Shown here one piece after another: positions 2,213 to 55,769 of a DNA stretch of 64,000 nt (position 1 is its first letter; each line of letters begins with the position of its first letter). Location: positions 783,005 to 847,004 of the forward strand of contig CAWIOS010000012.1 of assembly GCA_963837815.1 (NCBI GenBank). The letters run 5' to 3'. The notes beneath the pieces were generated by a model. It had not been told where the DNA came from and made no database searches. It saw only the letters and a program-made list of their open reading frames with translations. The stretch comes from Ignavibacteriota bacterium (GTDB lineage Bacteria > Bacteroidota > Ignavibacteria > UBA10030 > UBA6906). A program made the translations under genes and the position numbers.

Positions 2213-2627
2213 GACGCTCATCCTCCAGGTTATCCGATTGTGATGAGACCCGACACTTCGTCCTGATATACCTATTACGACGGAAGCGGGCCGTGAAGCC
2301 TTTGTGTGCGAGACAAGAGGCGCAAAGTCCATGCCACAACGTTTGGCTGTTTATGCACTTCGTTGCGAACGGAAGGAAGTCTCCGGTGTCCATGGTTGGC
2401 CACGTGGTCGGGATTCTCACGCGCCGGCCGTCCGCGCGACACCTCCCGCCAGTGGCAATGGTACAGAGATTCACTCCGTCCGCCCGGATTATGAAGAGAA
2501 TTCCGTCGCGGGAAGGGTTGGCACAGCAATTGTCATTCATCAACCACCTTCCATCCGACATGCCGGAAGGAGGATGTCAGGCTGTCACGGAAGCAACAGT
2601 GTAATCGCACCCCAGGAGGAACATCAG

Positions 2628-4937
2628 GTGATTACAGCTCGAAAGCATATGCGGCTCATGCACGCAATCGTGCTCTTCACCTTCACTTCTATGCTCGTTA
2701 CGGTGACGCTCCCTGCGAGCGCTCCGGCACAGGAACTCTCGGCGAGAGAAAAACTGCTGAAGCTCCTGGATGAATCCGGCACGGCGAAAACGAACGGACG
2801 AACGGCAACGGGCGCCACGGCAAAACCTGCGAGGAGCCCTGAGAAGAGTCCGGCCCCGCACCGTTCCACGCCTGCAACGCCGCAGGCGTTGACTGCAACG
2901 CCGCAGGCGTTTACTGCAACGCCGCAGGCGGTGACTGCAACGCCGCAGGCGGTGACTGCAACGCCGCAGGCGGTGACTGCAACGCCGCAGGCGGTGACTG
3001 CAACGCCGCAGGCGTTGACTGCAACGCCACAGGCGGTGCCCGCGACGCAGCAGGCGGCGCACGCCGCAATCGTGACTTCCGGACCCGCGGTCGAGATTGC
3101 GCAACAGCCGCAGGCAGCCGCGGCACCCTCCCCCGCACAGGAACAGGGCCACGGCTCTTTCCCGATGACCGCCGTGATTGCCGCTGCCGCACTGGGGGGA
3201 GTTGCGGCTCTTGCAATCGGCATCCGGAAGAAGAAGATACGCTCGTACAGGCACTGGAGTCTGTCCGCAAAGGTGTGTTTTGTGTCCGTTGCCGCCGTGA
3301 TACCTCTGCTCCTTGTCGTGCTCGTGTACATACTTCCGACAATCCGGGAGCGCCTGTATGCGGAAAAAATCCAGGCGACAAAACAGGTCGTCGACCTCGC
3401 GTATGCGGTCCTTGCCGATTCCAGGGCGCAGGCGGACCGGGGCATTCTCACCGACGCAGCGGCACGCGCGCAGGCAGTCGAAAACCTCAGGAGGCTCCGA
3501 TACAACAAGGAGGACTACTTCTGGATCAACGACCTCACGCCGACCATGATCATGCACCCGTTCAAACCCGAAATGAACGGCAAGAATCTGAACGACTACA
3601 AGGATCCCAACGGGAAGCGGTTTTTCGTCGATATGGCAAAGGTGTGCGAGGCGCAGGGTGAGGGGGCAGTGGACTACATGTGGCCCAAGCCCGGGTTCGA
3701 CCGGCCCGTTCCCAAGATCTCCTACGTAAAGCTCTTCACGCCCTGGGGCTGGATCGTCGGCAGCGGCATATACGTCGAAGACGTGGAAGCCCAGATCGAC
3801 TCGCTCCGGATGGGCATACTGGCGGGCGCCCTTGGCGCGCTCGCCCTGTCGACACTTCTCGGGCTCGTGGTAGGACGGTTCATCAGGAAGCCCTTGCTCG
3901 ATGTGGCCACCCAGATGGCCAACGCTGACCTAAACACGGAATTCCGATCCGATCTCGACAATGAGATAGGCGACCTGCTGCGCGCATTTGACAAGTTTGT
4001 CCACTCGATACGACACGCCCTCCTGCAGGTGAGGGAAGCCTCCTTCGCCCTGGCAAGCGCAAGTGCGGAAATCAGCAGCAGCACCGAAGAAATGGCGGCG
4101 GGCGCACAGGAGCAGAGTTCGCAGGCAACCGAGGTGGCAGGTTCGGTGGAGGAGATGACAAAGACAATACTTGAGAACTCGCGGAATGCGGCCGGGACTG
4201 CCGAGATCGCGAAGCACGCGCGGCAGGCCGCCGAGGAGGGAGGGCGACTCGTGCAGGAGACCGTGGAAGGAATGAAGGGGATCGCGGAAGTCGTCAACGC
4301 CAGCGCGGGAATCGTCAGGGAACTCGGGAAATCGAGCGGCCAGATCGGCACGATCGTCACCGTGATTGACGAAATCGCAGACCAGACAAATCTCCTTGCC
4401 CTGAACGCCGCCATCGAAGCGGCCCGGGCAGGCGATCAGGGACGCGGATTCGCCGTTGTCGCGGACGAGGTGCGCAAGCTGGCTGAACGGACAACAAATG
4501 CCACAAAGGAAATTGCCGGGATGATCAAGAGGATTCAGTCGGATACCTCGGAGGCGGTGAAGTCCATGGGCGACGGCGCGGAGCGGGTCACCAGGGGGTC
4601 CGATCTGGCTGACCGGGCGGGCTTATCGCTTCGCGACATCGTGCAGACATCCCAGAAAGTCACGGACATGGTGGCACAGATCGCGGCGGCAAACGAGGAG
4701 CAGTCGGCCGCAAGTGAACAGATCTCAAAGAACGTCGAGACGATAACCATGGTCACCGGCCAGACCGCCGAGGGAACGACACAGATCGCAAAGGCGGCCG
4801 AAGACCTCAACCGGCTGACGGAAAACCTCCGCTCGCTTGTAGGGACGTTCGCACTCGACGACTCCCCCGCTCCGGCCCAGCAGCAACGCACCGGATCCCG
4901 GAAGCACGAACAGGAGCTCGCAGAACATGAAGCATGA
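2628..4937 (+). CDS. Methyl-accepting chemotaxis protein with signal peptide, TPQAxTA low-complexity repeat, periplasmic Cache-like sensor, HAMP and MCP domain
   Basis: ORF 2304..4937. Probable start GTG 2628 (AGGAGGA RBS 2613-2619) or ATG 2649 ([25 protein letters not shown] signal-like). Cache-like motif [45 protein letters not shown]...YMWPKPG; MCP signature [43 protein letters not shown]. Divergent from the upstream MCP. Confidence 0.8.
2871..3045 (+). repeat. Tandem 21-bp direct repeat (about 8 copies of actgcaacgccgcaggcggtg) encoding (TPQA[VLF]TA)n inside the MCP gene
   Basis: Directly visible in sequence 2871-3045; in-frame, translating to [26 protein letters not shown]...; minor unit variants (ttg/ttt/gtg at one codon). 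Confidence 0.85.
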
Positions 4938-21613: not shown

Positions 21614-22626
21614 AGGGATTGCCGGGGATATTCGCCGGAGCGACGGCGGCCGTTTGTTTTGCTCTCGCGGCGACATCATATCCGCCCGGCGCCGGCGCGC
21701 CGGTTGCTGAGATTCCTCAGGCGGCGGAGGCGGGCACCGGCACGGTCCCCCGCCCGTTCTGCCTCCATTACCAGTATGCATCATTTGCCGACGACACGGC
21801 GCTCTACGCAAATGCATACAGGGCTGCCGGGCTGGCGGCCCGAGACGCCTGCGGGAAGGGGACAAACGGCCGCACGGAATTGTCGGAGGGGGGAATCGGC
21901 AGTATCCGAGCCGGGACGATCTCGCACCATCTTTTTATACGGGATCTGATCGCCCGGTATTTCACCGGGCTGGCCCGGCGCGTTCACCCGGAGACGATCA
22001 TCCTTATCGGCCCGAACCATCATGCACGCGGACACTCCCCCATCGCGATTTCCGCGCTCCGCTGGAGGACCCCGTTCGGTTTCGTCGAACCCGACACCGC
22101 GAGAATCCGGAGGATATCCACCACCGGGCTCGCCTGCGTTGAGGAAGAACCGTTCGTCAACGAGCACTCGATCGGGGCGCTCGTACCGTTCGTGCGGCGG
22201 TCGTTCCCCGGAAGCCGGATCGTGCCAATCATATTCAAAAAAGCGGCAAACAGACGCGAGTGCATGGAGCTCGCCCGCGTCATCGCGTGTCAGATGGAGG
22301 ACGCGATCGTCCTCGCGAGCCTTGATTTCTCACATTACAAAACAAGCAGTGAGGCCGAGGCGGAGGACAGTGCAAGCATCAGCGTCCTCCGTTCATTCGC
22401 GGCGGACCGGATAGACGAGGCATTTGTCGATTCCCGCCCCGCCCTCCTGACGCTGATGTCAATCTGCGAGATTATCGGCGCCGGCAACATCGATGTCGTG
22501 GAGCATACAAATTCCGGGATACTCTCCCACAACGCCCGCGTCGCGTGCACGAGCTATATCAACACGTACATCGAAGAGGGGGGAAATATGGTTCACCTGC
22601 CACTCTTCCAGAGTGATCCTCCATGA
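21610..22626 (+). CDS. MEMO1-like protein (AmmeMemoRadiSam system protein B family; class-III extradiol-dioxygenase-like fold)
   Basis: ORF 21520..22626. Likely TTG start at 21610 overlapping the upstream TGA (TTGA, translational coupling), giving MKGLPGIFAGATAAVCFALAAT N-terminus. Memo-family motifs IILIGPNHH and NEHSIGALVPF (compare LGPSHH / DEHSIEMHLPY in MEMO1). Confidence 0.55.
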   Translation: MKGLPGIFAGATAAVCFALAATSYPPGAGAPVAEIPQAAEAGTGTVPRPFCLHYQYASFADDTALYANAYRAAGLAARDACGKGTNGRTELSEGGIGSIRAGTISHHLFIRDLIARYFTGLARRVHPETIILIGPNHHARGHSPIAISALRWRTPFGFVEPDTARIRRISTTGLACVEEEPFVNEHSIGALVPFVRRSFPGSRIVPIIFKKAANRRECMELARVIACQMEDAIVLASLDFSHYKTSSEAEAEDSASISVLRSFAADRIDEAFVDSRPALLTLMSICEIIGAGNIDVVEHTNSGILSHNARVACTSYINTYIEEGGNMVHLPLFQSDPP

Positions 22627-40378: not shown

Positions 40379-42913
40379 TTATTTCAGAAGTTCTATTTTT
40401 GTTGTCCTGACAAATCGGATTCCCCCCCCCGCATCCGATGCGATCATGCGGACGAAGTACACCCCGCTCCCGAACGAGGCGGCGTTCCAGACCGCCGAAT
40501 GCGAGCCGGCCGCCACCTGACCGTCCACGAGGCTCGCGACCTCCTGGCCCAGCAGGTCATACACTCTCAGCGAGACGCGCACGCCGGCCGGGACGCGGTA
40601 GGCGATGACCGTCGACGGGTTGAACGGGTTCGGGTAGTTCTGGCTCAGGGCATACTCCGCAGGAATCGCGGGAGCCGGCGGCGGGACGGAAACGATCACG
40701 GACCTCAAGAGTTGAAGCTGGTCGACGAGGACCAACCCCGATCGCGCGCTCACCCCGGGGAGATAGCGGAACTGGAACGCGTCAAAGCGCATCTGCCCGC
40801 CGAGGTTCGGAGCGCCGAGCCAGGAACCGACGGAGTCGTTGGCAAGATCCCATTCCACCAGCCTCCATCCAACCCAGTCGAGCGGGTACCAGCGGCTCAC
40901 CTTGTGGTTTTGTGGCCTCCCCCCGGGATAGATGTCGACGCTGTCCTCGATGCCAAACCGGAACTGGCTCAGATCGCCCTCGTTGTACACGAACGCCTCA
41001 AGCACCGTCCCCTGTTTCTGAAAGAGGATCGAGCGCTCCGGAGCGAGAGTATCGAGCGGCACGCGCAGGAGCCAGGACGACGCGGCCGTGTCCCATGCGT
41101 ACCTGAGCAATCCGGCGACCGGATCGCCCGCCAGTGCAGGGAACGCGGTGCTCTCGATAGAGTCGAACGACGCCGTGTCGACGCCCGTCGTGTAGGGCGC
41201 GGTCATCGGCTGCCTCCACTGCACCGGGCGCGTATTGAACGAGTCAATCGTCGTTGTGATGCGCGACAGGGGCTGGACGGAAAATGACCAGACGAGCGGT
41301 GAAGTGCCCGGGATGATGTTCCCCGTCATATCCTTCGCGCCGCTCACGCTTACCGTATAGGATGCGCCGGGCTCAAGTCCTCCGGTGACGAAGATATTGA
41401 CGCCGCTCCTGGAGGGCGTCCCGATGTACATGACGGTCCGCGCGAGCGAGGGGAGACCGCCGATTTGTCCGATCCTGAAATTCGCCGTGGTGACCGTCGC
41501 CGGGTTCAGCGGTTCATCAAACGTGATGTTGACCGTGGTGTACGGCGTCGCCACCGTCATCGCGGAATCCGGGAACCGGGAGAGGATGACGGGCGGGTTC
41601 AACCGGACAATTTTCGTCCGGAAGCCGAGAATGAACGGATGGCCGGGAGTCCCGACGCCGGTCCCGTCAACAGGCTGGCCCGAGGCGCTGCGGGCGTTCG
41701 TATCGACCTTCACGGTGAAATTGACAGGAAACGGGAACGGAGCGACCGGCGTGAACGTCAGGATCGTGTTGTCCGGGTCCCACGAGAGACTCCCGGTGAC
41801 CGCGGGGGCGATCGAAAAGGCCGCGCGGACGGATGCGGTGTCCATCGGTGCGGAGAAGTGTATCCCAACCGCCGTCCTCGGGTCCACGGACGTATCCCCG
41901 TTCACCGGACTCGTCGAGAGGACAACCGGGAACCCGGTCGATGCGAGCGTCCGGTCAACGAACACGGTGGCGCCGGTTCCCACGACAACGGCGATGGAAT
42001 CCGTCCTGTAGCCGGGAGTCTCGAAACGGACGGTGTAGGAACCGGGAGCGAGGCTGTCGAACATGAAGAAGCCGTTCTTGAACGCGTCCCCGCCGTACAC
42101 CCTGCCGGAAGGAAGCAGTCTCACGCGGGTATTGTTCACGGGAGCCCCGCCGGCAACATCGGTCTGTATCCCCGCGATGATGCCGCGCGGATCGGCCGGA
42201 ACGCCGAAGTACTGCATGAAGGCGTTCCGGATGGCATAGGCTTCCATTTTGTGGTAATCGTTGTTCAGGAGACGCCGGCACTCCGGATAGAAGTCATGGA
42301 ACGAACCCTCGGAGAGCTCTCCCGGCATCAGAAGGCCGCTCAGCACGCCCAGGTTGTACCCGCCCGCCGGACCTCCGTAAAATGTGTAGTCAAGCCAGGT
42401 GCTCGTGCTGCTCGTCCGGAGCATCCCCTGTATCGCCGGACCGATCAGATTCGACATCGTGACGTCCTGCGGGAACGCGGCAGTGCGCGTCGGGATGTCT
42501 TCCTTCACGAGCATCAGTGTATAATTGATGCTCGTGTTGTCCGCCAGCCCGCTCGCGTTGGAGTGTATCGAGTGAAACCAGTCGACGTTGTTCGCGTTGG
42601 CGAGCTGCCAGCGCGCCGTGAGGCTCGGCTCGTCGTTCCCGTCGGGATACGTCGTGTCGTTCGACGTCCGGGTCAGTATGACCGTCGCCCCCTGCCGCCA
42701 CAGCAGCTCCCTGAGGAGGAGCGCCTTCTCGAAGTTGCTTTCCGATTCCCAGAAATTCACACCCGGATCCGGCTGGACATTCCGGTCGTCACTCGAATAC
42801 CCGCCGTGCCCCGGATCGATGCAGAATTTCAACCCCGAGAGGTCGGACCTCTGCGCCACCGCGAGAGACGCAGAAAGGACGACGATGCATGTCAGAGGAA
42901 GTCTCCTGCTCAT
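40379..42913 (-). CDS. T9SS-secreted N-acetylmuramoyl-L-alanine amidase (N-terminal Amidase_3 catalytic domain, Ig-like/beta-sandwich repeats, C-terminal Por-secretion sorting domain)
   Basis: 844 aa; signal peptide; Amidase_3 motifs CIDPGHGGYSSDD…NFEKALLLREL…FHSIHSNA. C-terminal about 80 aa …QNYPNPFNPSTVIAYRV…VYDLLGQEVASLVDG…GSGVYFVRMIASDAGGGIRFVRTTKIELLK matches type-A T9SS CTD. Confidence 0.75.
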   Translation of the reverse strand: MSRRLPLTCIVVLSASLAVAQRSDLSGLKFCIDPGHGGYSSDDRNVQPDPGVNFWESESNFEKALLLRELLWRQGATVILTRTSNDTTYPDGNDEPSLTARWQLANANNVDWFHSIHSNASGLADNTSINYTLMLVKEDIPTRTAAFPQDVTMSNLIGPAIQGMLRTSSTSTWLDYTFYGGPAGGYNLGVLSGLLMPGELSEGSFHDFYPECRRLLNNDYHKMEAYAIRNAFMQYFGVPADPRGIIAGIQTDVAGGAPVNNTRVRLLPSGRVYGGDAFKNGFFMFDSLAPGSYTVRFETPGYRTDSIAVVVGTGATVFVDRTLASTGFPVVLSTSPVNGDTSVDPRTAVGIHFSAPMDTASVRAAFSIAPAVTGSLSWDPDNTILTFTPVAPFPFPVNFTVKVDTNARSASGQPVDGTGVGTPGHPFILGFRTKIVRLNPPVILSRFPDSAMTVATPYTTVNITFDEPLNPATVTTANFRIGQIGGLPSLARTVMYIGTPSRSGVNIFVTGGLEPGASYTVSVSGAKDMTGNIIPGTSPLVWSFSVQPLSRITTTIDSFNTRPVQWRQPMTAPYTTGVDTASFDSIESTAFPALAGDPVAGLLRYAWDTAASSWLLRVPLDTLAPERSILFQKQGTVLEAFVYNEGDLSQFRFGIEDSVDIYPGGRPQNHKVSRWYPLDWVGWRLVEWDLANDSVGSWLGAPNLGGQMRFDAFQFRYLPGVSARSGLVLVDQLQLLRSVIVSVPPPAPAIPAEYALSQNYPNPFNPSTVIAYRVPAGVRVSLRVYDLLGQEVASLVDGQVAAGSHSAVWNAASFGSGVYFVRMIASDAGGGIRFVRTTKIELLK

Positions 42914-43833: not shown

Positions 43834-43967
43834 TTCTCCGGAGAAAAAAGCGTGGTTCAGTTCGCCCTGGCGAGAGCGGCGTCACGGGCCCTGCGTCCGC
43901 AATGACAGGGGCCGCCCGCGAACACGCCATACCTCCCAATATAGGAAAAACGGAGGAAAGGGGCTTT

Positions 43968-48114: not shown

Positions 48115-49263
48115 TCACACTTTAATGAACCACTTTCTCTTCCACATCGCCCAGACGACCAGGTACATCACCAGGATGAACGCAATGGCAAACGCTGCCG
48201 AGGCGTTCACCGGACTGAAGTAGGGAACGAAGAGGTTGTCGTAGATAAGGCCTTTCAGCGTCACCGGGTTGCCGTCGGATCCCGTGAACCTGATGAGCGT
48301 CAGGAGGCGCCCGACGATCCCCGAGAGGACGAACACCGCGATCGCGTTCATCCCGTAGATAACGAACGGGCGTGCCCACTTCGTATGCCCCTTCACGTCC
48401 ATCAGCCAGTAAAATACGGAGAAGCACACAAGGGCCCAGCCGGCCATGAACACGACGTACGAGCTCGTCCAGAGATTCTTGTTGATCGGCAGCCAGATAT
48501 CCATGATCGCCCCCGCAAGAAGGAAGAAATTCCCGAAGACGAACATCCATGCCGTCTTCTCTTCGCGCGAATGATTCGAGCGGAGCCAGTGACCCGTGAG
48601 TATACCGAGAAGCGTCGTCGCAATCGCGGGGACCGTGCTGAGTATTCCTTCGGGATCAAATCCGGGAGCAGGCGCACCACTCCAGGTATGTCCTGCAAGC
48701 AGGTGTGAATCAATGTACCAGGGGAGACAGCCGGTCGGCTGGAGGACGCCTGGGCCGAAGCCGGGGACGGGGATGAGCATCACCGCGGCCCAGTACGAGG
48801 CCAGGAGCCCCACGACCCACCAGACCTGCGCCTTCCACCCCGTGTAGAGGAATATCGTGCTCGCCGCAAGATAACAGACCGCAATCCTCTGGAGGACGCC
48901 GGGTATGCGCATCGTCGAGAGTGAAAAGTTGCCGACAATCAGGCCGAACGGGAACCCGTTCAGGAACGTCCCCAGCGCGAATATGATCACGGCCCTGCGG
49001 AGGACGTGAAGGAGGAGCTTCCCGCTGTCCTCGCCCCGGTCCTTCCTCTTCTGGAAGGAGAGCGTCATGGCGACGCCGACGATCCAGAGAAAGAACGGGA
49101 ATATCCAGTCGGTGAACGTCCACCCGTTCCACCGTGCATGCTCGAGCTGCGGGTAGATAAAGTTCCAGGAACCGGGATTGTTGACAAGTATCATGCCGGC
49201 AATCGTGGCGCCGCGAAATGCGTCGAGTGAACCGAGGCGGGAGGAGGAATCCGTGGTGGTCAT
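48115..49263 (-). CDS. nagX: Polytopic membrane protein of the DUF1624/DUF5009 HGSNAT-like family (NagX-like, amino-sugar uptake/acyl transfer)
   Basis: 382 aa, about 10 TM; conserved N-terminal RLxSLDxFRGxTIxxMILVN motif (RLGSLDAFRGATIAGMILVNNPG) characteristic of this family. Confidence 0.65.
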   Translation of the reverse strand: MTTTDSSSRLGSLDAFRGATIAGMILVNNPGSWNFIYPQLEHARWNGWTFTDWIFPFFLWIVGVAMTLSFQKRKDRGEDSGKLLLHVLRRAVIIFALGTFLNGFPFGLIVGNFSLSTMRIPGVLQRIAVCYLAASTIFLYTGWKAQVWWVVGLLASYWAAVMLIPVPGFGPGVLQPTGCLPWYIDSHLLAGHTWSGAPAPGFDPEGILSTVPAIATTLLGILTGHWLRSNHSREEKTAWMFVFGNFFLLAGAIMDIWLPINKNLWTSSYVVFMAGWALVCFSVFYWLMDVKGHTKWARPFVIYGMNAIAVFVLSGIVGRLLTLIRFTGSDGNPVTLKGLIYDNLFVPYFSPVNASAAFAIAFILVMYLVVWAMWKRKWFIKV

Positions 49264-49305
49264 GGGCTATGGTGTCGTGGGCAATTGTTTCGGGTTGCCG
49301 CGTGG

Positions 49306-49400
49306 CGCCTGCGGCGGGATGCAAAAAGCGCTCCCCGCCTGTGGCGGGATGCAAAAAGCGCTCCCCGCCTGTGGCGGGATGCAAAAAGCGCACATTGATT
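49306..49400. repeat. Tandem array of three 30-bp direct repeats (ggcgggatgcaaaaagcgctccccgcctgt), each an imperfect palindrome/hairpin; third copy degenerate
   Basis: Visible at 49313-49342, 49343-49372, 49373-49395 (plus a partial leader copy from 49306). Each unit has arms ggcggga / tccccgcc around an A5-containing loop. Lies 5 nt downstream of the epimerase stop and about 40 nt upstream of the nagX start on the minus strand. Confidence 0.8.
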
Positions 49401-50539
49401 CATAGTTTGGTGATGCCGAGGCCGGGGCCGTCGGTCAGCGTGACCTTCCCGTCGACGATCGCGGCTCCTTTGAAGAGGTCGTTGCTTATCAGGAGAGCGC
49501 CGTCCAGGTCCGCATAATCCGCCAGCGGTGAAAGCTGCGCCGCGGCGGAGATCGCGCACGAGGTCTCCGTCATGCACCCGATCATCACCTTCATGCCGAG
49601 CGCCCGGGCGGCCGCGATCATCTTGTACGCTTCGTGCATGCCGGTGGATTTCATCAGCTTGATGTTGATGCCGTCGAATACGCCGATCGCGTTCTTGATG
49701 TCCGACATCCGGACGACGCTCTCGTCCCCGATGAGGGGGAGCGGGCTGCGCGACCGGAGCCAGGCGATATCATCCGGTTGCTCTTTCGGCATCGGCTGCT
49801 CCACGAACTCCACCCCCTTCGTCGCGAGCCATTCGATCTCCTTCAGGGCGGCTTCCCTGTCCTTCCATCCCTGGTTCACGTCCACGCGGATCGGCTTGTC
49901 CGTCACCTCCCGTATCGTCTCGATCATCTCCTTGTCATTCGCGAGTCCCATCTTGACTTTGAGGACCCTGTATATTTCCGCCTCCTTCACCTTCTGCCTC
50001 ACCACATCCGGCTTGTCGATCCCGATCGTGAACGTCGTGACGGGGGCTTTCGACGGGTCGAGCCCCCAGATCCTGTACCACGGGCATCCCATCTTCTTCC
50101 CTATCCAGTCGTGGAGCGCGATGTCAACGGCGGCTTTCGCGGCATTGTTCCCGGGCGCGATCGCGTCAACATCGCGGAGTATGTCTTCGAGACGGAACGG
50201 GTCGGCGTATTTTGCCATGTCCACCTTCGAAAGAAACGCTGTCGCGCTCGCGTGGCTCTCGCCGAGATAGGGGGGCATCGAGGCCTCACCGTACCCGACG
50301 ATCCCGTCCTGTTCGACCTCCACCATCATGACGGGGGTCGTGCTGCGCGAATACGTGGCCACCGTGAAGACGTGTTTCAGTTCGAGCGTGTAGGGATAGA
50401 ATCTGAGTTTCATGGGATTCCCCGTTGTTGATCCCGTGACGGCGCTTCGACCGAGCGACAAGAGAGCGCTCCGGCCGAGCGCGAGCGACGCCCCTGCGAG
50501 GGCCGACCGTTTGAGAAATGTCCGTCTGTCAGTGTTCAT
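49400..50539 (-). CDS. L-Ala-D/L-Glu dipeptide epimerase (enolase superfamily, MLE subgroup; YkfB/YcjG-like) with Tat-type signal
   Basis: ORF 49400..50578; start MNTDRRTFLKRSALAGASLALG (twin-Arg) at 50539. Enolase-superfamily KxK motif (LKVKMG), metal ligands (DVNQGW…E…D). Paired with NlpC/P60 endopeptidase gene upstream. Confidence 0.75.
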   Translation of the reverse strand: MNTDRRTFLKRSALAGASLALGRSALLSLGRSAVTGSTTGNPMKLRFYPYTLELKHVFTVATYSRSTTPVMMVEVEQDGIVGYGEASMPPYLGESHASATAFLSKVDMAKYADPFRLEDILRDVDAIAPGNNAAKAAVDIALHDWIGKKMGCPWYRIWGLDPSKAPVTTFTIGIDKPDVVRQKVKEAEIYRVLKVKMGLANDKEMIETIREVTDKPIRVDVNQGWKDREAALKEIEWLATKGVEFVEQPMPKEQPDDIAWLRSRSPLPLIGDESVVRMSDIKNAIGVFDGINIKLMKSTGMHEAYKMIAAARALGMKVMIGCMTETSCAISAAAQLSPLADYADLDGALLISNDLFKGAAIVDGKVTLTDGPGLGITKL

Positions 50540-51770: not shown

Positions 51771-54149
51771 TTATTTGATGAGGAGCATTTTTTTCGTCAT
51801 TGTAAACGCGGCGGCGGTCATTCGCACGATGTACATGCCGCTCGCCCGGTTTGACCCGTTCCACGGGACGGCGTACCTCCCGGGGGCCTGCACACCGTCG
51901 ACAAGCCGCTCCACCTCCTGGCCGAGCATGTCGTACACGATTATCGTCACCCTGCCCGACACAGGGAGCTGATAGCCGATCGTTGTCGAGGGGTTGAACG
52001 GGTTCGGATAATTCTGATCCAGCCCGAACGTCGACGGGACTCCGGGCGGGGTTTCCACGCCCGTGACCTGCACGGTGCGGAACTTGTACACCGGAGACCA
52101 TGCGCTCGTCCCGATAGAGTTGGTCGCCCGGACCCTCCAGAAATAGATCGTGAAATACTCGAGCGGGGGAGCACCCAGCGCCGTGTCGGCGACGCCGGCC
52201 GAGTCCATGACGGGAGAGGCGAAATCCGCGCTCTTTCCGATCTGCAGACGGTACGATACGGGGCCGGTCGAGAGGGCCGGACTCCACCGGAGCGACAGGA
52301 ACACAGGGAGGTCGGGCTGCATGTTCGCCGGATACAAGAGAGACGGCGTCGCCGGGAAACCTGTCCGGAAATTCGACGCCGCGGACCAGGAGCTTGTCCC
52401 CCCGCCACTTGAAGCCCGCACACGCCAGTAATACAATGCCTGCCCCTGGAACCCCTTTACGAGCCGGAACGTGTCCGTAAGGGCCGACTCATTCCAGACC
52501 AGGCCCGACGCAAACGCCGGGTCCGTCCCGACCTGAAGCTGGTAGCCCGATGCAAGGAGCGATGAACGCCATGTGACGCTCAGGCTTTCGGCCACGTCGG
52601 ACGTGCCGCTCAGGGGCGCAGAGAGAAGCGGAGCGGGAGGAGCTGAGAGTATTATGATGTTGCTCGTGTCGCTCTCGACATAGTTCCGGCTGAGGGCTGT
52701 GACGAGATAGTACCAGGGTCCACCCGGGGACGGGGGAGCCGGAGGGACGAAATATCTATTTCCTTCGACGGAGAGTATGTTCAGCGGGTTCGCAAGCTCG
52801 GACGCCGCCGGGCGGTGGTCAAAACGATACACGACATACCGGTACGCGGTATCGCCGTTCGGCGAGACAATGGGAAGGTCCCACTGGATCGCGGCGGGAG
52901 CCACGCCGGGAAGCGCCGCGTAACGGATGCCGCGTGGCATATAGGGAGGGGTCATATCCTTCCACGGCATCGGCGCGATGAGCGCCGGGTACGCGTACAC
53001 GCTGTTCCGGAGTGTGTCGGCGATCCCGCCCAGGTTCCCCGAAGTAATATCGTTCGTCGTGAACTGAATGTTCCCCTGCGTGTTCACGTCGGCCCTTGAG
53101 AACCGGATCTGTTGTGCGATCTGGGAGGCGTCACCGAACGAGCTCGTCCCAATCCTGTACGTCGCAAGCCCCGGGTACGAGTGCCGCCCGTGCGCCGCCA
53201 CCGAGTCGGACCACCAGGGCTCGAGTGTCGCGTAGTCCTGCGGCCCGCCGAACTTCCAGTAGAGCTGCTGGGCCAGGTAGTCGACATACTGGCCGTCGAG
53301 CCAGGCCATAGGGTCGCAGTAGATAACGGAGTAGTTGTCGTTTCCGCTCGTGTTCGGGGGCATACCGTCCTTCCAAATACCCGCAGGGCTCATGCCGAAC
53401 TTCACCCAGGGTTTAATCGCCTTTATGCTGTCGTAAATCGCCTGAAGGAGTATATTGACGTTGTCGCGCCGCCAGTCACCCCTGTCGGAAATTCCGCGCC
53501 AGTTGAGGCCGTAGGAGGAATCGTCCTGGTGCGCGGTGATCCCCTCGGCGTAGAAATAGTCGTCCATATGTATCCCGTCAACGTCGTAGCGGCGGGTCAC
53601 ATCGAGTAGGACGCTGGTGACGTACGCCCTGACATCCGGCAGCCCCGGGTCGAGCATCTCGAGGTTTCCGATCGTGAGTATCCACCCGGGATGCCGGACC
53701 GAGACATGCATGGAGCTAATGGGATATGCCCCGATGGAATTGACCGCCCTGTAGGGATTGAACCACGCGTGCAGCTCCATCCCCCTCTTGTGAGCCTCAT
53801 CGACGGCAAACTGGAGCGGGTCGAACGGGGACTGGGGAGGGGTCCCCTGCGACCCGGTCAGCCAGTATGACCAGGGCTCGATCGAGGACTGATAGAAGGC
53901 GTCGCACTCCGGGCGCACCTGAAATATCACCGCATTGAACCCCTCCGCGCGGAGGCTGTTGAGTATCGATACCAGCGAGTCCTTCTGCCTCTGGACCGGA
54001 CCGCCAAGAACCGGGGGCCAGTCGGTGGCCCCCACAGTCGTGAGCCAGACGCCCCGGAACTCATGCTTCGGCAAGACCTGGGAAGTGCAGGTCAGTACCA
54101 CCGACAGGAGGAGTGCGCCGACGGCCAACGGCAGATGAAGAGGTTTCAT
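51771..54149 (-). CDS. T9SS-secreted GHL10 (glycoside-hydrolase-like family 10 / YngK-type TIM barrel) protein with FN3-like repeats and Por-secretion C-terminal domain
   Basis: ORF 51771..54200; start MKPLHLPLAVGALLLSVVLTCTS at 54149. GHL10 N-terminal motif EFRGVWLTTVGATDWP…NAVIFQVRP…HAWFNPYR; middle FN3-like repeats; C-terminal …DQNYPNPFNPSTTIGYQL…VYDMLGQEVERLVDG…GMYIVRMTAAAFTMTKKMLLIK type-A CTD. Confidence 0.7.
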   Translation of the reverse strand: MKPLHLPLAVGALLLSVVLTCTSQVLPKHEFRGVWLTTVGATDWPPVLGGPVQRQKDSLVSILNSLRAEGFNAVIFQVRPECDAFYQSSIEPWSYWLTGSQGTPPQSPFDPLQFAVDEAHKRGMELHAWFNPYRAVNSIGAYPISSMHVSVRHPGWILTIGNLEMLDPGLPDVRAYVTSVLLDVTRRYDVDGIHMDDYFYAEGITAHQDDSSYGLNWRGISDRGDWRRDNVNILLQAIYDSIKAIKPWVKFGMSPAGIWKDGMPPNTSGNDNYSVIYCDPMAWLDGQYVDYLAQQLYWKFGGPQDYATLEPWWSDSVAAHGRHSYPGLATYRIGTSSFGDASQIAQQIRFSRADVNTQGNIQFTTNDITSGNLGGIADTLRNSVYAYPALIAPMPWKDMTPPYMPRGIRYAALPGVAPAAIQWDLPIVSPNGDTAYRYVVYRFDHRPAASELANPLNILSVEGNRYFVPPAPPSPGGPWYYLVTALSRNYVESDTSNIIILSAPPAPLLSAPLSGTSDVAESLSVTWRSSLLASGYQLQVGTDPAFASGLVWNESALTDTFRLVKGFQGQALYYWRVRASSGGGTSSWSAASNFRTGFPATPSLLYPANMQPDLPVFLSLRWSPALSTGPVSYRLQIGKSADFASPVMDSAGVADTALGAPPLEYFTIYFWRVRATNSIGTSAWSPVYKFRTVQVTGVETPPGVPSTFGLDQNYPNPFNPSTTIGYQLPVSGRVTIIVYDMLGQEVERLVDGVQAPGRYAVPWNGSNRASGMYIVRMTAAAFTMTKKMLLIK

Positions 54150-54223: not shown

Positions 54224-54263
54224 AATAAATGAAAAGGCATCCCGCACATTTGCGCGGGATGCC
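54224..54263 (-). terminator. Putative rho-independent terminator (10-bp GC stem ggcatcccgc/gcgggatgcc, 8-nt loop, followed on minus strand by TTTTCATTTATT)
   Basis: Perfect inverted repeat at 54236-54263; on the transcribed (minus) strand it is followed by a T-rich tract; located 43 nt downstream of the stop of gene 54306..55769. Confidence 0.55.
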
Positions 54264-54305
54264 CTCTCAATCCTCAACCCCCGGTCAGCAAGGGGGGGCG
54301 AATAG

Positions 54306-55769
54306 CTACTTCAACAGCATCATCTTCTTCGTGATCCGGGCGTCGCCCGATGTGAACGTGTAGAGGTACGTCCCTGAGGCAAGGTTCGTGCCGTCAAGTT
54401 TCGCCGTGAACGTCCCGGGATTCATGTTCTGGTTGACGAGAGTCGCCACCACCCTCCCGATAACGTCATAGACCTTGAGCGTCGTCATACCGGCCTTCGC
54501 AACCTTGAACTCGATTTCCGTCGAGGGGTTGAAAGGGTTCGGGTAGTTCTGCTGCAACGCATAGCCTGAGGGAACGTTGTTGTTCACGACGCTGATGCTC
54601 GTGACAGTGCGCGTGTACATACGGAGCGAAGGATTCCCGTGTCCGGTGAGACCGAACACTCCGACGTAGGCCGTGTCGCCGCCCGGGCTGAATGCAATCG
54701 CACGGGGGCGTTCGTTCGCATCATTGGCGATGAAGAATGTCCACTTGATGCTGTCCCTCACCGCGCAGTTGCCGGTGGTGTCGATGGCATACCACGTTCC
54801 GGGGGTGTAATATGTCGTAAGACCGGGCCAGTCGTTCGGCACGTCGTTATACGAACCGCAGCTCGCCCAGAGGTATGCATTCGTTCCGCTCTTCTTCTTG
54901 TTCCAGCCGATCGACTCGCAGTGGAATCCCTTCAGGATCGTGTCAATGCGCGTATAGAACGAGCCGAGAAGCCCGGCCGGCGAACGATAGCGATAGATGG
55001 CACGGTCCGTGTAGCCGGGGAAATAGATGTCATTACCGTCCTTGGAGACTTCGACGGCCCGGCAGTACGAGTTCGGATCGAGCGTATCAACGGCATTCTC
55101 ATTGAACGTCAGGTCCGGGTTGAACACCGCCAGGGGGGCGGCGCCGGAGGCAACCTTTGTCGCATACACGTAGCCATTGGCGTCGACACCGACGGACACC
55201 GTCGATGCGCCCGCGGTGTTTTCGAGACCCTTCGCCATCCCCGCACCGGTCTTGTAGTTGATCCGGTAGAAGATATTGAACATCGATGCGATGATATTGC
55301 CGTCCTGGTCACAGCGGAGTCCGCGACCCGAGTTCGGGCTGCTCGACGGATTCCAGAGCCAGGGACCGCCGGTATACGCCTGCAGAGAAGCGCCGCCGAT
55401 CGTGTCCTGTTTCCCGTTGACCGTCAGGAACTTTATCGGCGAGAATGACACCTGCGTGCCGTCCGGATTGTACACGCGGATCACGCGCACAGCAACCTCT
55501 TGCTGCGTGATGCTGTCCGTGATCGTCTTTCCGTCCCCGATACGCGCGCCGTAGTTCTTGACAAGTATCGTATCCTCGGGATACGCATAATAGCTCAGGA
55601 CCCAGATCTTCCCGTCAGGGTCAACCGCCAACCCGTGTACCCCGTAGTGAATCGTGTCTCCCGCAACCTTACCCGCCGGGGGAAATATCCCCCGATCCTG
55701 CCACTGACCGAAGGCTGTAACAGCGGCGAGTATGGAGAGCAGGATGACTGCTGTAACTGTTTTCTTCAT
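54306..55769 (-). CDS. T9SS-secreted beta-propeller protein of unknown function
   Basis: ORF 54306..55868; start MKKTVTAVILLSILAAVTAFGQ at 55769 (AGGAG RBS). C-terminal …QNYPNPFNPSTEIEFKV…VYDVIGRVVATLVN…GTYLYTFTSGDARITKKMMLLK type-A CTD. Confidence 0.65.
   Translation of the reverse strand: MKKTVTAVILLSILAAVTAFGQWQDRGIFPPAGKVAGDTIHYGVHGLAVDPDGKIWVLSYYAYPEDTILVKNYGARIGDGKTITDSITQQEVAVRVIRVYNPDGTQVSFSPIKFLTVNGKQDTIGGASLQAYTGGPWLWNPSSSPNSGRGLRCDQDGNIIASMFNIFYRINYKTGAGMAKGLENTAGASTVSVGVDANGYVYATKVASGAAPLAVFNPDLTFNENAVDTLDPNSYCRAVEVSKDGNDIYFPGYTDRAIYRYRSPAGLLGSFYTRIDTILKGFHCESIGWNKKKSGTNAYLWASCGSYNDVPNDWPGLTTYYTPGTWYAIDTTGNCAVRDSIKWTFFIANDANERPRAIAFSPGGDTAYVGVFGLTGHGNPSLRMYTRTVTSISVVNNNVPSGYALQQNYPNPFNPSTEIEFKVAKAGMTTLKVYDVIGRVVATLVNQNMNPGTFTAKLDGTNLASGTYLYTFTSGDARITKKMMLLK

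Follow-up and report, generated by a model that had tools for sequence, protein, structure and literature searches.

Gene context and organization of the tandem array

The window, i.e., the whole 64,000-nucleotide stretch of DNA analyzed, carries a long co-directional run of genes involved in cell-wall turnover (recycling), the order of which is conserved in relatives. The members of this cluster encode a GHL10/T9SS protein, an NlpC/P60 protein, an epimerase, a NagX-like protein, a class-A beta-lactamase-like protein, an Amidase_3 protein, a BadF-type kinase, and a GH3 protein. The neighboring spacers within the cluster measure 0–18 nt. The epimerase and NagX-like genes, both located on the minus strand, flank the repeats described here (Table 1). 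The names epimerase and nagX given to these genes in the preliminary description hold as "-like", their profile scores being below the curated cutoffs: this is the case of the dipeptide epimerase profile matches of the upstream gene, and the downstream gene scored 193 bits with NagX NF046061 vs. a cutoff of 480. The epimerase is identical to the database protein P0001 (100% identity, 379 aa) and has the same length in nearly all its closest homologs; the NagX-like protein is 382 aa long in most relatives and 372 aa long in L018 and L019. The N-terminus of the epimerase (50480-50539, minus strand) is Tat-signal-like (TIGR01409, 19.4 bits vs. a cutoff of 16.7), and PF10518 was matched on several of its homologs. 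This predicted N-terminus suggests that the epimerase may be exported, which would be unusual: L-Ala-D/L-Glu epimerases are usually taken as cytoplasmic.

Table 1. Features of the epimerase–nagX-like spacer, its flanking genes and a related site in the window
Feature	Position	Strand	Basis or remark
Upstream gene, dipeptide (L-Ala-D/L-Glu) epimerase-like enolase-superfamily enzyme, 379 aa	49400..50539	-	profile and protein search
Downstream gene, NagX-like membrane protein, 382 aa	48115..49263	-	NF046061, E=8e-57
Whole epimerase–nagX-like spacer, 136 nt, epimerase stop to nagX-like start	49264..49399	-	sequence
ATCAATGT, directly 3' of the epimerase stop codon	49392..49399	-	compared with TGA-GTCATTGCGAGG, same position in L020
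Tandem array, three 30-nt units	49302..49391	-	Tandem Repeats Finder, exact and fuzzy matches, repeat-family search, covariance model
Unit 1, perfect	49391-49362	-	first in transcript order
Unit 2, perfect	49361-49332	-	second in transcript order
Unit 3, hybrid, 5 mismatches, reads GCGCTTTTTGCATCCCGCCGCAGGCGCCAC	49331-49302	-	promoter-distal in transcript order
First U5/T5 tract, part of the conserved block CGCTTTTTGCATC preceding each hairpin	49383..49387	-	block invariant across family members
Hairpin 1, UCCCGCC-ACA-GGCGGGG, 7 pairs including one U-G, 3-nt loop	49363..49379	-	terminator-like scan, folding
Hairpin 2, identical to hairpin 1, then GCGC and U5 at 49327-49323	49333..49349	-	terminator-like scan, folding
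Crippled third hairpin, CGCC-GCA-GGCG, 4 pairs only	49306..49316	-	sequence; comparison with L022 and L028b
CGCGGCAACC then CGAAACAATT	49283..49302	-	7/10 and 8/10 matches to the right-end module CGAAGCAATC
TGTCATTGCGGA, in the 134-nt spacer 43834-43967	43896..43907	-	comparison with L020

On the mRNA strand, the spacer reads stop-AUCAAUGU-(GCGCUUUUUGCAUCCCGCCACAGGCGGGGA)x2-GCGCUUUUUGCAUCCCGCCGCAGGCGCCAC-GCGGCAACCCGAAACAAUUGCCCACGACACCAUAGCCC-AUG, and the array alone reads GCGCTTTTTGCATCCCGCCACAGGCGGGGA. Tandem Repeats Finder detected a period of 30 with 2.9 copies, 98% matches, and a score of 165 at 49306-49391. The 30-mer GGCGGGATGCAAAAAGCGCTCCCCGCCTGT occurs in the window in two exact copies (49313-49342 and 49343-49372) and the 19-mer core of the unit in three copies, all of them within the array; these counts were reached in none of 100 shuffles. 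The covariance model described below matched the array with E values of 1.4e-11 and 5.8e-6. The three tandem 30-bp repeats announced in the preliminary description are therefore real, and the absence of any other copy in the 64 kb was borne out by both a fuzzy search (up to 8 mismatches) and the covariance model with its filters off, neither of which detected the module elsewhere in the window. Two details had to be corrected. Since the epimerase stop codon lies at 49402-49400, the array begins 8 nt after it and not 5 nt. The last copy had been described as degenerate: a truncated copy does adjoin the epimerase stop codon, but in the order of transcription the degenerate unit is the promoter-distal hybrid. 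The units are contiguous, without any spacers between the repeats, which is not the layout of a CRISPR array.

Unit 3 has a left arm of the CCCGCC type joined to a right part GGCGCCA-CG..GCAAC, the arm GGCGCCA being of the type present in L028b and in the basic elements of the relative L022. Judging from its letters, this right part resembles the right half of an L022 basic element (GGCGCCACGAAGCAATC), which would account for the crippled hairpin in this unit. The borders of the array also show traces of other motifs: ATCAATGT may tentatively be regarded as a decayed remnant of the left module GTCATTG(CGAG) of the family, and CGCGGCAACC and CGAAACAATT may be two decayed copies of its right-end module. 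In the region of the latter (49283..49302), GGCAA and UUGCC form a small predicted hairpin with a pair probability of about 0.7. The last 20 nt or so of the spacer (CCCACGACACCATAGCCC) align with the relative L020. A 9-nt direct repeat, CGTGGCGCC (49204 and 49301), was considered as a possible target-site duplication; this was discarded, as one of the two copies is internal to nagX and the repeat does not coincide with any element boundary.

Hairpin register and terminator-like layout

Two hairpins can be drawn in the array. The dyad ggcggga…tccccgcc of the preliminary description (GGCGGG-15 nt-CCCGCC) can form, and its energy of -15.9 kcal/mol is similar to the -14.6 kcal/mol of the short-loop hairpin, but it exists only because the units are tandem. 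The conserved hairpin is CCCGCC-N3-GGCGGG, which spans the unit junctions; since the single-copy relatives of the unit hold only this short-loop hairpin, the comparative data decide in favor of this register. The hairpin CCCGCC-ACA-GGCGGG folds with -11.8 to -14.6 kcal/mol, the last value being obtained with a short extension, and hairpin 1 can be extended to GCAUCCCGCC/GGCGGGGAGC with one A-A mismatch.

The choice of the register affects the reading of the U-tracts. The statement that the layout is not that of a canonical terminator, the A/T run being in the loop, was based on the wrong register: in the short-loop register, a U5 tract is located 3' of the stem. Hairpin 1 is followed by (A)GCGC and then by U5 at 49357-49353, and a terminator-like scan flagged both 49379-49363 and 49349-49333 on the mRNA strand. 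In intrinsic terminators, the U-tract starts 0-2 nt past the stem. The U-tract starts here 5 nt past the perfect stem (2 nt past it if the mismatched extension is counted), so that the layout is that of a sub-optimal terminator and, at this distance, the terminator activity may be nil. The ensemble obtained with the whole spacer is split among nested alternatives of about equal energy and has a centroid with almost no pairs; z-scores of -1.96 and -0.91 were obtained with the mRNA strand and the opposite strand, respectively. The idea that successive T-blocks might make up a promoter of the Bacteroidetes type (TTTG ... TAnnTTTG) was discarded by inspection, since they are spaced by 30 instead of about 26 and lack the TA.

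A strong canonical intrinsic terminator is present elsewhere in the window, at 54230-54269 on the minus strand, where an 18-bp stem (-34 kcal/mol) followed by UUUUCAUUUAUU lies 3' of a 520-aa T9SS-tail gene. The organism thus uses classical terminators. Its counterpart in the relative L025 precedes an array of four units of the hairpin module.

The spacer in relatives and the dispersed repeat family

The orthologous loci, which were obtained by performing a protein search, encode epimerases 85-89% identical to that of the window, and the identity of the flanking DNA is 80-90% right to the edge of the spacer. The content of the spacer itself varies. In three relatives (L014-16, L154, and L155), the epimerases of which are about 87-89% identical, it is reduced to 24 nt with no repeat. 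In six relatives, other short hairpin repeats occupy 78-245 nt at the same spacer: GTCATTGCGAG-type motifs in L020 (78 nt) and L018/19 (114 nt), and mixed modules in L024-26 (223 nt), L022 (227 nt), and L017 (245 nt). The triplet array of the window was present in none of these nine orthologous spacers, where it is either absent or replaced. The array is a recent and lineage-specific addition to a spacer which can also be empty. L022 carries a single copy of the module, CGAAG-TCCGTTTTTTGGATCCCGCCGCAGGCGGGG-CAACC, in the position and orientation of the distal unit of the window.

Other events have affected the same spacer. In L022 (8556-8640) and L023 (1750-1846), a 21 bp x 4 tandem array (TTGTCATAAATAGCTCTAG) is located directly past the epimerase stop codon; its unit, as seen in L022, includes the last bases of the gene, the stop codon, and the start of a GTCAT module, and this array is another independent local amplification. 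The metagenome contigs L021 (end 10749) and L023 (end 1846) both terminate inside the epimerase–nagX spacer, which is consistent with repeats breaking short-read assemblies.

The unit of the array can be written GCGCTTTTTGCA-TCCCGCC-loop-GGCGGGA and recurs in either orientation. A motif search in the fetched loci showed that the block and hairpin of the family, CGCTTTTTG(G/C)ATC(C/A)CGCC-loop-GGCG(G/T)GA, are present at other spacers of the relatives in both orientations. A 34-nt version forms a head-to-tail array between the T9SS gene and the GHL10 gene, with four units in L025 and three in L026; these contigs are otherwise 99.96% identical and their arrays differ by exactly one unit, which could be due to an assembly collapse. 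When metagenomes were scanned with a 28-nt pattern including 25 specified bases taken from the window unit, seven soil contigs were matched in at least five different gene contexts, one of which follows a trxB-like gene; in L033, the module ends 3 nt before the rdgB-like start codon of the next gene. In all the soil contigs, the organization was GTCATTGCGAG-(linker)-CGAAG-T(GCGCTTTTTGCA-TCCCGCC-GCA-GGCGGGA)-CAATC. These single composites have an insert of the same length as the period of the array (30 nt) between CGAAG and CAATC.

Scanning the GTDB genomes with the 19-mer gave 13 single matches, among which the clear relatives are those of the Bacteroidota MAG L008 and the Ignavibacteriae MAG L001. 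L009 and L012 are possibly also members of the family. Most of the matches correspond to chance or to unrelated terminators, as in Gluconobacter (L007) and Streptomyces (L011), in which AAAAAGCGC is the start of a different hairpin. In L012, a 2.8-kb contig binned as Paceibacterota, three TTTTTGCATCC motifs occur within 140 nt (1-140), two of them forming the arms of a long palindrome (GGATGCAAAAAAATCGGC...GCCGATTTTTTTGCATCC), which suggests that, in other contexts, the T-block is conserved as a motif by itself.

When 13 members were aligned, the pairing of the stem was 100%, the loop measured 3 to 8 nt, the T-block was invariant, and one position covaried, this covariation resting on few, related sequences and on one pair in the alignment tested. 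The stem variants are CCCGCC/GGCGGG, CACGCC/GGCGTG, and GGCGCC/GGCGCC, the third type occurring in L028b as TGGCGCC/GGCGCCA. The covariance model built from this alignment identified 22 members in the 276 kb of fetched loci, in both orientations. Based on rough gene calls, most members are located 5-60 nt past a stop codon, and convergent genes flank one of them; about 9 of 11 members in this small sample are co-oriented with the upstream gene, and two are reversed. Two to three module sites per 12-20 kb were found in some relatives and at least five contexts in one soil metagenome series. Since the search in this organism covered the 64-kb window, which carries only one site, it is in the relatives that the dispersal can be seen. 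Dispersed copies, which the preliminary description had regarded as arguing against locus-specific regulation, thus exist in related genomes and metagenomes, and they support the REP-like mobile repeat that it listed among several options. Searching the IMG/VR viral contigs for the exact 19-mer gave no copy of the module and no sign of a phage origin. Rfam searches at gathering and permissive thresholds gave nothing but noise, namely 6C, Cis90, and HOXB13-AS1, which scored far under their respective cutoffs, and a literature search by sequence words yielded only unrelated primers and no relevant description of the module or of the element carrying it.

The carrier element is a palindrome, GTCATTGCGAG-N5-30-CGAAGCAATC, usually followed by CAG. 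Among the matches listed, it is present in more than 120 IMG/VR contigs (L034-L153, viral/proviral) with GC contents of 0.30-0.72; up to six carriers per contig, often in head-to-head pairs, occur among the matches listed (e.g., L048 3339-12744 and L069), and the commonest form among them is the 26-mer GTCATTGCGAGCGAAGCGAAGCAATC. This palindrome is a cross-phylum REP-like element, and no Rfam match to it was obtained. In the window, TGTCATTGCGGA is probably a decayed copy or relic of its left module: the relative L020 carries intact GTCATTGCGAG copies at the equivalent spacer. Matches to GTCATTGCGAG with two mismatches at 22279, 26018, and 58235 were not element-like on inspection.

Origin and possible effects of the array

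The features of the family are reminiscent of the REP/BIME elements of Enterobacteria and Pseudomonas, which are likewise short GC-rich imperfect palindromes located in spacers, mostly just past stop codons. The 30-nt unit (7-bp stem, 3-nt loop) falls within the 20-40 bp of the REP stem-loop palindromes, and it is extragenic and downstream of a coding region. The presence or absence of the elements at orthologous sites, their variable mosaics with other motifs, and their occurrence as single copies, inverted pairs, or clusters are also shared features. BIME-like mosaics and head-to-head pairs are clear in L017, L022, L024, L025, and L031. However, the sequences are unrelated and the present family has no GTAG tag; in addition, BIMEs alternate in orientation, whereas the array of the window is head-to-tail, without spacing, and has decayed end modules. 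Classical REP families typically number more than 100 copies per genome, and some number 20-100. In the REPIN/RAYT system, a single-copy RAYT gene (encoding an IS200/IS605-like Y1 transposase) is flanked by the repeats.

In the paper by Di Nocera, De Gregorio and Rocco (2013; PMC3733652), the CGTC-tagged REPs are described as a super-family occurring in Bacteroidetes, Chlorobi, and other phyla, with no dedicated transposase known, and including the Neisseria dRS3/NIME arrays and the Rickettsia RPE-4/6; these REPs bear a CGTC (or TGTC/CCTC) tag that stays unpaired, have a stem opening with A-T pairs and a 3-nt CCA-like tail, and form head-to-head pairs. The basic element of the relatives, (C/T)GTC-ATTGCGAG...CGAAGCAAT-CCAG, has such a tag, an A-T/T-A stem start, a CCA-like tail, and head-to-head dimers, this likeness being judged from the published written description. 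It differs from them in its stem, which consists of five perfect pairs, an internal loop, and a variable inner hairpin, vs. the 8-9 contiguous pairs given in that description. The unit of the window differs further: it has neither the tag nor the tail, only the decayed ATCAATGT and CGAAACAATT being present nearby, and its counterpart is an additional T-block-plus-hairpin module, which is inserted into an element of this type. The carrier presumably resembles the ends of the Neisseria dRS3 (GTCATT...AATCCAG).

The array probably arose by the local tandem amplification of a single module belonging to a REP/BIME-like family of dispersed extragenic hairpins. The carriers of this family would form a lineage of soil bacteria that have a high GC content, bear a T9SS, and are annotated as Bacteroidota. 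The module consists of the conserved CGCTTTTTG(C/G)ATC block plus a 7-bp GC hairpin with a variable loop, and corresponds elsewhere to an insert of about 30 nt between the CGAAG and the CAATC of the ubiquitous palindrome GTCATTGCGAG...CGAAGCAATC(CAG). The epimerase–nagX spacer appears to be a hot spot, which in the relatives is either filled with different combinations of modules or empty. One module was probably multiplied here to about 2.6 to 3 copies, replication slippage or unequal recombination being the likeliest mechanism, and the distal unit appears to be joined to the right half of a basic element. Since this spacer is variably filled or empty in the relatives, the array would not be a dedicated regulator of the operon.

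It might be argued that the hairpins are two functional tandem intrinsic terminators ending the NlpC/P60-epimerase transcript, nagX being an independent unit. As in intrinsic terminators, including tandem ones, a GC-rich stem-loop is followed by a U run on the coding strand, twice; both sites were flagged by the scan, the hairpins are stable (with the extension), and canonical terminators are used elsewhere in the organism. The array differs from terminators of this kind by the 5-nt GC gap between the perfect stem and the U-tract, and the site is not conserved. The single-copy members of the family have a T-tract only 5' of the hairpin and are therefore not terminators, and the single copy of L033 stands immediately before a start codon. 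The number of terminator-like sites in the surrounding 10 kb (8) is close to that obtained in shuffles (7.3). Moreover, the promoter scan detected no promoter-like site between the array and nagX, which begins 38 nt past the end of the array, and the 24-nt hairpin-free spacers of three relatives imply that the two genes are co-transcribed there. The genes downstream of the array appear to depend on read-through, and termination of the transcript at this point is unlikely.

A locus-specific cis-regulatory RNA (an attenuator, a riboswitch-like element, or a processing site) tuning nagX vs. the epimerase would fit with the intra-operon position immediately past a stop codon and with the mutually exclusive ways in which the units can fold. 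The comparative data already largely refute this idea: the array is conserved in none of the nine orthologous spacers, the unit of the window also adjoins unrelated genes, no Rfam match was obtained at either threshold, and the z-scores are only those given above; this role is very improbable. The array might also consist of DNA sites for a protein recognizing the CGCTTTTTG(C/G)ATC block and the hairpin, such as a transposase or nuclease associated with REPs, a nucleoid protein, or a topology protein. IHF and gyrase act on E. coli BIMEs. An invariant block, a covarying stem, and a free loop form the pattern expected of a protein-recognized hairpin with a guide sequence, and the binding of such proteins to REPs is mentioned in two papers (PMC2817692, PMC3479197). 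This reading, which we regard as rather improbable, is compatible with the local amplification favored here: it describes how the family spreads and not what this copy does for the operon. A protein-binding array specific to this operon, as proposed in the preliminary description, is unsupported, since the unit of the window adjoins unrelated genes elsewhere. Lastly, a chance repeat, an assembly artifact, or a coding repeat can hardly be envisaged. The period (30) is divisible by 3, and the spacer is crossed by mechanical ORFs on both strands (minus, 49260-49577; plus, 49178-49405), but the repeat was reproduced by no shuffle, the 90-bp array is shorter than a typical read, and the flanking genes end and start as in their homologs, the crossing ORFs having no support.

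Assuming that the array arose by local amplification, it may nevertheless act on the transcript. In E. coli, REP/BIME elements within operon mRNAs (malEFG) can stabilize the message that precedes them or reduce read-through. On the polycistronic mRNA, the two intact GC hairpins and the GCGC-U5 sequences would probably be weak intrinsic terminators or barriers to 3'-exonucleases, which would result, as with the E. coli elements, in somewhat more NlpC/P60-epimerase message than message of nagX and beyond. That this effect would be measurable at the RNA level is doubtful. We infer that nagX is transcribed by read-through, which is favored by the lack of a promoter-like site past the array together with the short spacers of the cluster, by the short distance to the start codon, and by the reduced spacers of the relatives. 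The intra-operon attenuator or stability role initially suggested would be at most a side effect, since this spacer lacks the element in three relatives and contains other repeats instead in six.

The array appears to be ordinary in kind (REP/BIME-like), and the module family appears to be undescribed. A bolder reading, to which we give little credence, is that the T-block-plus-hairpin is a lineage-restricted miniature element inserting site-specifically at CGAAG^CAATC of a ubiquitous CGTC-type REP, one repeat thus being nested inside another, and amplifying itself head-to-tail, its copy number acting in operons as a graded, rapidly evolving terminator/attenuator "dial". Copy-number changes would act in this way because each added unit sets a U-tract behind the previous hairpin. 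If the number of units does tune read-through, expression variation would be generated cheaply by arrays of this kind. In practice, the array should not be annotated as an attenuator, a riboswitch, or an operator of the peptidoglycan-recycling cluster. It points rather to a REP-like module family, apparently undescribed, of uncultured soil bacteria with a Bacteroidota annotation, and to a cross-phylum GTCATTGCGAG...CGAAGCAATC palindrome that fills operon spacers, appears to break metagenome assemblies here, and varies in copy number between near-identical contigs, which is useful for annotation, strain typing, and explaining contig ends.

Two other sets of repeated sequences were found in the window. 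A 21-bp x 8.9 tandem repeat (CTGCAACGCCGCAGGCGGTGA) at 2872-3057 on the plus strand lies inside the ORF 2304-4937 (877 aa, likely coding) and would encode the heptapeptides T-A-T-P-Q-A-V/L; it gave weak covariance-model matches via its CGCC-GCA-GGCG core and was discarded as a member of the family, being a coding repeat. Three 63-nt stretches (40603-40665, 51977-52039, and 54512-54574), which are 70-78% alike, lie close to the 3' ends of three genes belonging to the cluster or adjoining it, all on the minus strand; Por_Secre_tail (T9SS sorting) domains are encoded by at least two of these genes. This similarity probably reflects conservation at the coding level and not a DNA repeat.
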